From IMG/VR virus record IMGVR_UViG_2721755662_000004: a stretch of 64,000 bases of DNA; one strand, 5' to 3'. Origin of the DNA: a virus (taxonomy: Duplodnaviria > Heunggongvirae > Uroviricota > Caudoviricetes). The number at the start of each line of letters is the position of its first letter. Position 1 is the first letter of the stretch. Shown piece after piece: positions 9,346-10,611 of the stretch. Both the position numbers and the translations under genes were made by a program. Below the pieces are notes generated by a model, which was given only the letters and a program-made list of their open reading frames with translations, made no database searches and was not told the origin of the DNA.

Positions 9346-9495
9346 ACACCAACCGCAGCAGCCTGAAGCCGATTGGGTTAACCCGGAGATACCGGGACCG
9401 TCTGTGAAGATGTGCAGTCACACCAATGTGCAGTCACACCAACCGCAGCAGCCTGAAGCCGATTGGGTTAACCCGGGAGATACCGGGACCGTCTG
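9346..9495. repeat. Two direct copies of a roughly 59-bp repeat (CCAACCGCAGCAGCCTGAAGCCGATTGGGTTAACCCGG...GGGACCGTCTG); putative origin iterons
   Basis: Copies at about 9346-9404 and 9436-9495; third diverged copy inside replication gene. Confidence 0.6.
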
Positions 9496-9528
9496 CGGTA
9501 TGGAGTAAATCTTGTATGCGAGGGGACT

Positions 9529-10611
9529 ATGCGTAATTACGCAACAATTTCACCTCAGTTCTGGTTAGGCGATACAGGGCGAAAACTAAGGAAGTCTGGT
9601 CCGGAAAGTATGGTAGTGGCGTTGTATATGATGACCTCGCCTCATTCCAATATGCTGGGCCTTTATTACCTGCCTGTTTTGTACATTGCTCACGAAACCG
9701 GACTTGATCCTGAAGGGGCTTCTAAGGGGCTTCAAATGGCTTGCGAGGCTGGTTTTTGCAGCTATGACCATGATTCTGAGGTTGTATGGGTGCATGAAAT
9801 GGCAGCATGGCAGGTTGGTGAATCGCTGAAACCTGGCGATAACCGTTGTGCTGGGGTAAGAAATGAATATTCCGCGTTGCTGGAAAATCCTTTTTTATCA
9901 TCCTTTTATGATAGATATAAGGATGATTTCCACCTGGATGTCAGACGTGAATCATGTCGGAAAATTGAAGCCCCTTCAGAGCCCCTTTCAAGCCAAGAAC
10001 AGGAACAGGAACAAGAACAGGAAAGGGATAAAACCCTTCTGGTCCATGGCGAAAAAATCGCCACGGACCCACAGGGGGATTTTTGTCCTGTTCTGACTGA
10101 ACGTCCAGGACCAGCTGGCACGACACCGGAAGCAGATTCCGGGCGTTGTGTGCAGCAGGTGCTGATCGTCGAACCGGAGCAACAACGCCAACCGCAGCAG
10201 CCTGAAGCCGATTCCGCGATGAGCGGGAAGCCGATTGGGTTAACCCGGGCGATGCCGGGACCGTCTGCGGGACGAGTTGATTATCCTGACGTGTTCGAAC
10301 GGGTCTGGCGTGAATATCCGCATCGGGCAGGGTCAAACCCGAAGAAATCCGCGTTCAATGCCTGGAGGGCCAGATTACGCGAAGGGGTGTCACCGGATGT
10401 CGTGCTGGATGGCGTGAGGCGTTACGCAAGATACCTGGAGGCTACCGGGAAAGCGGGAACTGAATTTGTTCAGCAGGCATCGACGTTTTTTGGCCCGAAC
10501 AGGAATTTCGAAAATCCGTGGTCGCTGCCGAAGGCTGGCGCAGTCAGCCTGCGTTGCGTGAATCACATTTCTGAACCGGACACCGAAATTCCGCCGGGTT
10601 TCAGGGGGTAA
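9529..10611 (+). CDS. Replication initiation protein (O-like position, not lambda O family)
   Basis: 360-aa ORF after cII and immediately before DnaC-like gene; contains iteron-like repeat and EQEQEQEQE linker. Confidence 0.65.
   Translation: MRNYATISPQFWLGDTGRKLRKSGPESMVVALYMMTSPHSNMLGLYYLPVLYIAHETGLDPEGASKGLQMACEAGFCSYDHDSEVVWVHEMAAWQVGESLKPGDNRCAGVRNEYSALLENPFLSSFYDRYKDDFHLDVRRESCRKIEAPSEPLSSQEQEQEQEQERDKTLLVHGEKIATDPQGDFCPVLTERPGPAGTTPEADSGRCVQQVLIVEPEQQRQPQQPEADSAMSGKPIGLTRAMPGPSAGRVDYPDVFERVWREYPHRAGSNPKKSAFNAWRARLREGVSPDVVLDGVRRYARYLEATGKAGTEFVQQASTFFGPNRNFENPWSLPKAGAVSLRCVNHISEPDTEIPPGFRG
10186..10267. repeat. Third iteron-like repeat copy (with 23-bp insertion) inside replication gene
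   Basis: CCGCAGCAGCCTGAAGCCGATT...GGGTTAACCCGGGCGATGCCGGGACCGTCTG. Confidence 0.55.

Follow-up and report, generated by a model that had tools for sequence, protein, structure and literature searches.

Initiators of the lambda type owe their specificity to the N-terminal domain and use the C-terminal domain to bring in the helicase loader. The winged-helix replisome organiser G38P of Bacillus phage SPP1 has its binding repeats (oriL) in its own coding sequence. The origin of lambda (ori-lambda) is made up of four 18-bp iterons and an AT-rich region inside gene O, the Shiga toxin (Stx) phages 933W and P27 have six-iteron origins, and an origin within the initiator gene has been described for the O proteins of Stx phages (PMC7466680). 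Iteron plasmids like pPS10, R6K, F, and RK2 carry tandem iterons of 17−22 bp upstream of rep. Here, we analyzed a 64,000-nucleotide stretch of viral DNA (IMG/VR record IMGVR_UViG_2721755662_000004, referred to as the window), which represents a lambdoid Stx-type prophage of the ‘Eru4’ type. Its replication initiator gene is preceded by two copies of an element of about 66−70 bp and contains a third, and a preliminary description of this DNA had read these iteron-like copies as a plausible origin with initiator-binding sites. We find that the element is most likely duplicated DNA from the hinge-coding part of the initiator gene that varies in copy number, that its upstream copies are most likely not binding sites, and that the probable origin is formed by two intragenic clusters of an 11-bp repeat, AAGGGGCTTC.

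The three repeats were confirmed where the preliminary description had placed them, far beyond chance expectation (Table 1). In pairwise alignments, the two upstream copies agree in 63 of 70 columns, and their alignment has a single 1-nt indel. Aligned to the intragenic copy, copy 1 shows 64 matches and 5 mismatches and copy 2 shows 64 matches and 3 mismatches, both across a 23-nt gap. With up to three mismatches allowed, a 31-nt core is found in the 64 kb only at 9465−9495 and 10237−10267, with 0 occurrences expected (100 shuffles); copy 1 is not picked up by this search because of its 1-nt deletion. All three copies contain the inverted repeat CCCGG-N5/6-CCGGG, in agreement with the earlier account. 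Two other details had been read differently there. The upstream period is 90 bp, including a 16-bp duplication, rather than a tandem unit of ~59 bp, and the supposed insertion in the intragenic copy is actually a 23-bp deletion in the upstream copies. The 23 bp held by the intragenic copy (10204−10226) are located between two GAAGCCGATT motifs. A variant with three of the 16-bp units is represented by protein cluster P0122.

The intragenic copy encodes part of the hinge between the folded N-terminal domain and the C-terminal domain of the initiator. A long-form stretch with ~80% identity occupies the matching position in the initiators of phages Tritos, Evi, 606R7, 689R5, 640R1, and 204576, and each of these six Tritos-type records has one copy only, with none upstream. 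Their initiators have the hinge and the C-domain in common with the window's protein and an unrelated N-terminal domain. The upstream units of the window carry a Tritos-like TCACACC signature, and E. coli strain 23CRST049 has three upstream copies that all include the 23 bp. Since long forms are found both in 23CRST049 and in the Tritos-type genes, the long form is ancestral, with the upstream copies having lost 23 bp between the two GAAGCCGATT direct repeats. The paralogy of the copies is directly visible in the alignments, and by these comparisons the long intragenic copy is the ancestral one from which the upstream copies derive.

Neither the peptide nor the DNA of the element shows signs of particular constraint. 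Owing to a +1 and a −1 indel, the reading frame over ~45 bp of the element differs between the Eru4 and Tritos gene types, so that the peptide is unconstrained across this stretch. The element DNA is 77−78% identical between the two types, compared with 84% for the adjacent C-domain coding DNA; on these values, the element evolves faster than the neighboring coding DNA and has no excess conservation at the DNA level. The hinge is also internally repetitive. In Tritos, it contains four [GA]AAGCCGAT motifs, encoding PEADS/KADS/EADR, in two 96-bp units (2594−2725 of the Tritos locus L006; 10125−10240 in the window), and in each unit the motif pair flanks a short inverted repeat of unit-specific sequence. 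Relative to Tritos, 21 nt of the first unit have been lost from the window hinge.

The preliminary description had named absence of the repeats from replicating relatives as the outcome that would speak against an origin role, and this is what the comparison returned. Relatives of the initiator N-domain were collected from phage records and 51 bacterial genomes (Enterobacteriaceae, Acinetobacter, Burkholderiales, Xanthomonadales, Bacteroidota, Acidobacteriota, and others). Neither GAAGCCGATT nor the element core occurs in any of these ~55 relatives, including the isolated coliphage Fraca. Because the element is absent where the same N-domain is present, and present together with an unrelated one, it is tied to the hinge module and not to the DNA-binding module, which is the opposite of iterons. 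The element thus travels with the hinge/C-terminal module rather than with the winged-helix N-domain, and its interpretation as a set of initiator-binding iterons is not supported.

Several observations would nevertheless suit ~60-bp repeats that act as iteron-like initiator-binding sites, in an origin or an auxiliary part of one that, like the repeats of iteron plasmids, would lie partly outside the gene. The repeats are real, direct, clustered beside and inside the initiator gene, and similar to each other (three copies; 63/70 and 64/69 outside gaps), and each has a short inverted repeat. Each of the 81 E. coli genomes and 32 IMG/VR contigs with the module has one or more upstream copies, and isolated phages of the Eru4 type have two. 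We consider this reading unlikely, however, given the co-occurrence with the Tritos-type N-domain and the absence from the ~55 relatives, by which the element does not co-vary with the DNA-binding domain. Furthermore, instead of a short phased unit beside AT-rich DNA, the element has a 90-bp period and 60−67% GC, and the AT-rich dip lies ~400 bp away, between the 11-bp clusters. DNA constraint beyond coding is not apparent: excess conservation is lacking, frame-shifting indels are tolerated, and the arms of the inverted repeat are broken in natural variants, such as copy 2 of phage 75/02 (CCCAGG) and copy 1 of 23CRST049 (AGCGGG). The copy number also floats between 1 and 3, and a far better iteron candidate is found elsewhere in the initiator gene.

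This candidate is the 11-bp repeat. Exact AAGGGGCTTC occurs in the 64-kb window only in two clusters of two units each, which are separated by 255 bp and have opposite orientations. The GC minimum, with 25% GC in a 40-nt window (9880−9919), is located between them; of 33 relatives, 22 have it at the corresponding position, with a contribution from amino-acid composition. Among the genes of 56 relatives, 37 have cluster 1 at about +185/+196 and 34 have both clusters, compared with a background of 0.14 hits per kb in flanking DNA. Cluster 2 is direct in 8 genes and inverted in 25, and the encoded peptide switches between EGASKGL and APSKPL accordingly. The repeats are kept from Enterobacteriaceae to Bacteroidota and Acidobacteriota (loci L005, L007, L008, L018−L051, L069, and L070), and the divergent locus L009 has AAAGGGTTTCG at the corresponding places. 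In five relatives, a further AAGGGGCTTC copy is found in non-coding DNA just 5' of the start codon.

The conservation of the 11-bp repeats is directly observed at the level of DNA, as synonymous sites in the motif are frozen even in genomes with 65−67% GC. More specifically, the glycines of the motif are encoded by GGG in 59 of 62 cases (95 of 349 elsewhere in those genes), its alanines by GCT in 31 of 40 (77 of 459 elsewhere), and its leucines by CTT in 32 of 36 (60 of 417 elsewhere). The repeats are phased and clustered beside AT-rich DNA, co-vary with the DNA-binding domain, and show a DNA constraint that is independent of the protein, all of which characterize iterons. Cluster 1 falls within the codons of the third helix (61−73) of a predicted helix-strand-helix-helix-strand-strand winged-helix pattern, and this helix is presumably the recognition helix. 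The winged-helix fold of the N-domain lends indirect support to a role of the repeats as binding sites. It is probably these repeats, and not the 60-bp element, that act as iterons through putative binding of the initiator, and the origin would probably lie at about 9700−10000 within the initiator gene, as in lambda. The 11-bp iteron pair was not found described in the literature searched; it is a probable origin marker both for Eru4 Stx phages and for a large family of prophage initiators.

A (GAACAG)n microsatellite (9997−10023), which encodes QEQEQE, is located directly 3' of cluster 2. Its length among the four closest phages changes in steps of 6 or 12 nt, and most relatives, across phyla, also have an equivalent repeat after cluster 2. 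In Tritos, the gene part encoding the unrelated N-domain contains 4−5 GTCACG repeats, spaced by ~10 bp and grouped into two intragenic clusters that are separated by 260 bp (2158−2196 and 2418−2466 of L006). By this comparison, the Tritos layout is the same as the layout in the window's gene. Annotations and matches alike place the Tritos-type initiators in ‘replisome organiser’ families, and no DnaC-like gene follows the initiator in these phages.

Among known systems, the 11-bp clusters resemble ori-lambda, where the origin is located inside the initiator's own gene and the repeats lie beside an AT-rich segment (annotated in NC_001416). This likeness fits the 11-bp clusters and not the 60-bp element, which has no counterpart in ori-lambda. 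The window differs from lambda in that its initiator has no sequence similarity to the O N-domain (no Pfam match), its repeats are 11 bp long and arranged in two clusters 255 bp apart that are usually inverted, and its partner protein is DnaC-like rather than P. Similarity to SPP1 G38P is seen in the Tritos-type initiators, which match replisome organiser families and have GTCACG repeats in two intragenic clusters, whereas the window N-domain is not detectably a member of that family. The upstream repeats also depart from those of iteron plasmids, as they have a 90-bp period, are GC-rich, coding-derived, and variable in number, and are unlinked to the DNA-binding domain. They resemble instead the variable-number tandem duplications and the segmental duplications found where lambdoid phages have mosaic joints, with which they have copy-number polymorphism, concerted evolution, direct-repeat deletions, and spurious open reading frames (ORFs) of variable length in common. 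In contrast to other mosaic-joint duplications, the source is precisely the hinge-coding part of the adjacent gene, and because the source lies in this hinge, the duplication brackets the initiator N-domain together with the candidate origin.

Variation in natural populations was typed in an even sample of 40 records from the 81 of 5426 complete E. coli genomes in which the cII-to-initiator spacer is present. A 253-bp spacer with two copies is found in 32 of the 40 records and a 163-bp spacer with one copy in 5 (e.g., G1/2 and EC2), and 23CRST049 has its three long copies at a 113-bp period. The remaining two records, SW071611 and SW07163, show a clean crossover between an upstream and the intragenic copy. 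Initiator codons 1 to ~235 are gone, including the whole N-domain, leaving a hybrid junction and a gene annotated as a pseudogene. The candidate origin is also deleted in SW071611 (L011 1601−2074) and SW07163, and the pseudogene adjoins an intact DnaC-like gene. Strain TOE17 has three short copies, and the IMG/VR contigs have a two-copy spacer in 28 of 32 cases and a one-copy spacer in 4. In 23CRST049, every upstream copy as well as the gene copy carries a GAA-to-GAT change that occurs in no copy of the window, which indicates gene conversion among the copies. Copy number thus differs among near-identical genomes, and both the source and the recombination products are identified, as in a variable-number tandem or segmental duplication. 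Copy-number change, conversion, and deletions are the behavior of repeated DNA regardless of function.

We propose that in the Eru4 lineage of lambdoid/Stx prophages, a hinge-coding stretch would have been copied into the spacer between cII/oop and the initiator, and that this spacer copy would then have been shortened by 23 bp between two GAAGCCGATT direct repeats and amplified in tandem. The upstream copies, which are very probably non-coding and show no detectable sequence constraint of their own, probably have no function and would serve as recombination substrates. Unequal crossing-over would alter their number (1, 2, or 3), gene conversion would keep them similar to the intragenic copy, and crossing-over between an upstream and the intragenic copy deletes the first two thirds of the initiator gene, as observed in two strains. 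The N-terminal winged-helix domain, in turn, would bind the 11-bp repeats and open the AT-rich DNA, with host DnaB being recruited through the phage DnaC-like loader. As such, the duplication of hinge DNA is an ordinary kind of feature, and the alternative origin is a modest, testable by-product.

Some observations weigh against this explanation. At least one upstream copy is kept in every Eru4-type genome seen (including 81 E. coli genomes and 32 IMG/VR contigs), and one upstream copy may be required; but the lineage is young (0−5% diverged, 95−100% identity). The CCCGG/CCGGG arms are kept between Eru4 and Tritos genes while the spacer differs, which has a chance probability of ~0.1 at ~80% identity. 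The AT-rich dip and cluster 1 overlap conserved protein sequence, so that their conservation comes partly from coding. Finally, the intragenic copy, and it alone, contains GAATCGGCTTC, a 9/11 match to the iteron. As a degenerate iteron, GAATCGGCTTC was dropped, such matches being at chance level with 20 found versus 16 expected in 64 kb.

A different role for the element would be that of a second cis-acting origin module, with the hinge-derived DNA as a loading or assembly site for the shared C-domain or the helicase-loading machinery. Such a module would be shared by phages whose initiators have DNA-binding domains unrelated to each other, and in Eru4 phages additional functional copies would have been recruited upstream. 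In a related alternative, the direct repeats that bracket the N-domain and the iterons may act as homology arms for swapping origin-specificity cassettes. Even taken jointly, we regard these two possibilities as very unlikely, and duplicated hinge DNA with an intragenic 11-bp origin is the explanation preferred here.

The upstream copies are spanned by an annotated 72-aa ORF. The preliminary description had doubted that this ORF is a gene, and rightly so, as its frame is not conserved and no purifying selection is seen. In a database of 5.8 billion proteins, it is represented by 10 clusters only, all from E. coli, which are 42−102 aa long and have three different C-terminal reading frames. Its known variants span 41−102 aa overall, and in 23CRST049 the ORF ends at a TAG within copy 1. 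In the first 84 nt, all 5 of 5 substitutions between two lineages are nonsynonymous (nonsynonymous pN 0.074, synonymous pS 0), compared with a pN of 0.013 and a pS of 0.136 for the adjacent cII. A longer homologue of the ORF N-terminus, sought in the protein database as a relic of a longer known protein, was not found. Its annotation in all deposited phages and a PHROG family of its own could point to a real small repeat-containing protein, in which case the DNA repeats would merely mirror a repeated peptide. The variable length and frames, the restriction to E. coli, and the exclusively nonsynonymous substitutions make this extremely unlikely, as do the Shine-Dalgarno-like AGGG just 2 nt from the ATG and the lack of a Pfam or NCBIfam match. 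The sequence comparisons indicate that the ORF is very probably spurious.

The array could also be a cis-regulator of the initiator, either as an operator for a dimeric protein at CCCGG-N6-CCGGG, as a leader or upstream ORF that modulates initiator translation, or as a spacer between the initiator and the oop promoter. The half-sites are ~11 bp apart center to center, their arms are kept in Tritos-type genes, and the array starts directly at the homologue of the lambda oop promoter region. Furthermore, the ORF ends 20 nt 5' of the initiator start codon, and one frame variant overlaps that codon. However, neither the frame of the ORF nor its stop position relative to the initiator start is conserved, the half-sites are broken in some natural copies, and nothing upstream of the Tritos gene corresponds to the matching sequence within it. 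Folded as RNA, the array does not surpass shuffled sequence (z = −0.93), and a structured leader or riboregulator was rejected on this basis. Altogether, a regulatory role is highly improbable. The array contains no promoter or terminator consensus, and a sigma-70 scan revealed no promoter in it or for the oop-like RNA. This oop-like region, which is homologous to that of lambda, overlaps the cII 3' end and has a terminator with an 11-bp stem; it folds better than shuffles (z = −3.2). An Rfam search of 8500−10700 gave nothing above the gathering score and only a weak AgvB-like match over the oop-like region.

The region from 9280 to 10320 is 98−99.8% identical to Escherichia phage PhiR5_2, phiSTEC1589-Stx1c, and the Shigella phages POCJ13 and 75/02 Stx. 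In the typing of Stx phages, this replication module is Eru4, with Shigella phage 75/02 as its representative (PMC8951638); this region of 75/02 is 98% identical to the window. In that study, the Eru4 proteins are given as ‘of unknown function’ and as a putative AAA ‘helicase’. The word ‘iteron’ has no occurrence there and ‘origin’ has 4, all in a table header or reference titles, so that no origin is described. Between cro and cII (8870−8910), a boxA-like CGCTCTTTAAC is followed by the hairpin TCACC-N8-GGTGA, which resembles a nutR site.

Table 1. Repeats, candidate origin features, and genes around the replication initiator of the window.
Feature	Position	Strand	Remarks
Upstream copy 1	9339−9407		Short form, without the 23 bp; CCC-GG variant
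Upstream copy 2	9429−9512 (aligned part 9429−9498)		Short form; homology to the gene copy fades at ~9512, just 5' of the initiator ribosome-binding site
Intragenic long-form copy	Core 10178−10270; homology extends over ~10157−10284	+	Hinge residues ~QQRQPQQPEADSAMSGKPIGLTRAMPGPSAG
Exact 16-bp tandem duplication, ATGTGCAGTCACACCA x2	9410−9441		Junction of the two 90-bp units
Candidate iteron cluster 1, GAAGGGGCTTC TAAGGGGCTTC	9712−9733	+	11-bp period; encodes EGASKGL
Candidate iteron cluster 2, inverted, GAAGGGGCTTC + AAAGGGGCTCT (9967−9988) + degenerate third unit	9967−9999	−	
Most AT-rich stretch of the region	9880−9935		Between the clusters; candidate unwinding element
cI repressor	7820−8527	−	
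cro	8584−8862		
cII	8979−9275	+	Pfam Phage_CII; left edge of the spacer with the upstream copies
Oop-like antisense RNA region	9222−9303	−	Strong intrinsic terminator, stem 9251−9224; promoter region abuts the first repeat copy
72-aa ORF	9290−9508	+	Spans the upstream copies; judged very probably spurious
Replication initiator, 360 aa	9529−10611	+	phrog_1701; without Pfam match
DnaC/IstB-like AAA+ helicase-loader gene	10618−11358	+	Partner of the initiator

The initiator is organized into a winged-helix N-domain (residues 1 to ~145), the QEQEQE repeat, the hinge, and a C-domain that is common to many ‘O-like/primosomal’ phage proteins. Its AlphaFold model loses confidence beyond about residue 144, and the N-domain has no Pfam or NCBIfam match. 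The last 24 residues (ISEPDTEIPPGFRG and those preceding it; 10570−10611) show a weak match to the C-terminal tail of primosomal protein DnaT (NCBIfam E = 0.009, falling well short of the cut-off), which probably explains the label ‘primosomal protein I’ in GenBank records.

These findings underscore that direct repeats next to a rep gene are insufficient to call iterons, and that co-variation with the DNA-binding domain together with conservation of synonymous sites cleanly separates the two repeat sets. Annotators should drop the 72-aa ORF and its 41−102-aa variants as a gene. The repeats explain the recurrent pseudogene calls for the Eru4 module, and they are possibly behind the many ‘partial’ initiator entries in databases (P0001−P0021, ending at contig ends), as short-read assemblies may break there. 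Recombination between the repeats is one observed route of initiator loss in these prophages, and deletions of the SW071611/SW07163 type represent a natural route to prophage immobilization. For mapping or disabling the replication of Eru4 Stx phages, which are carriers of Stx1 in Shigella and E. coli, the target would be the region of 9700−10000 and not the upstream repeats.
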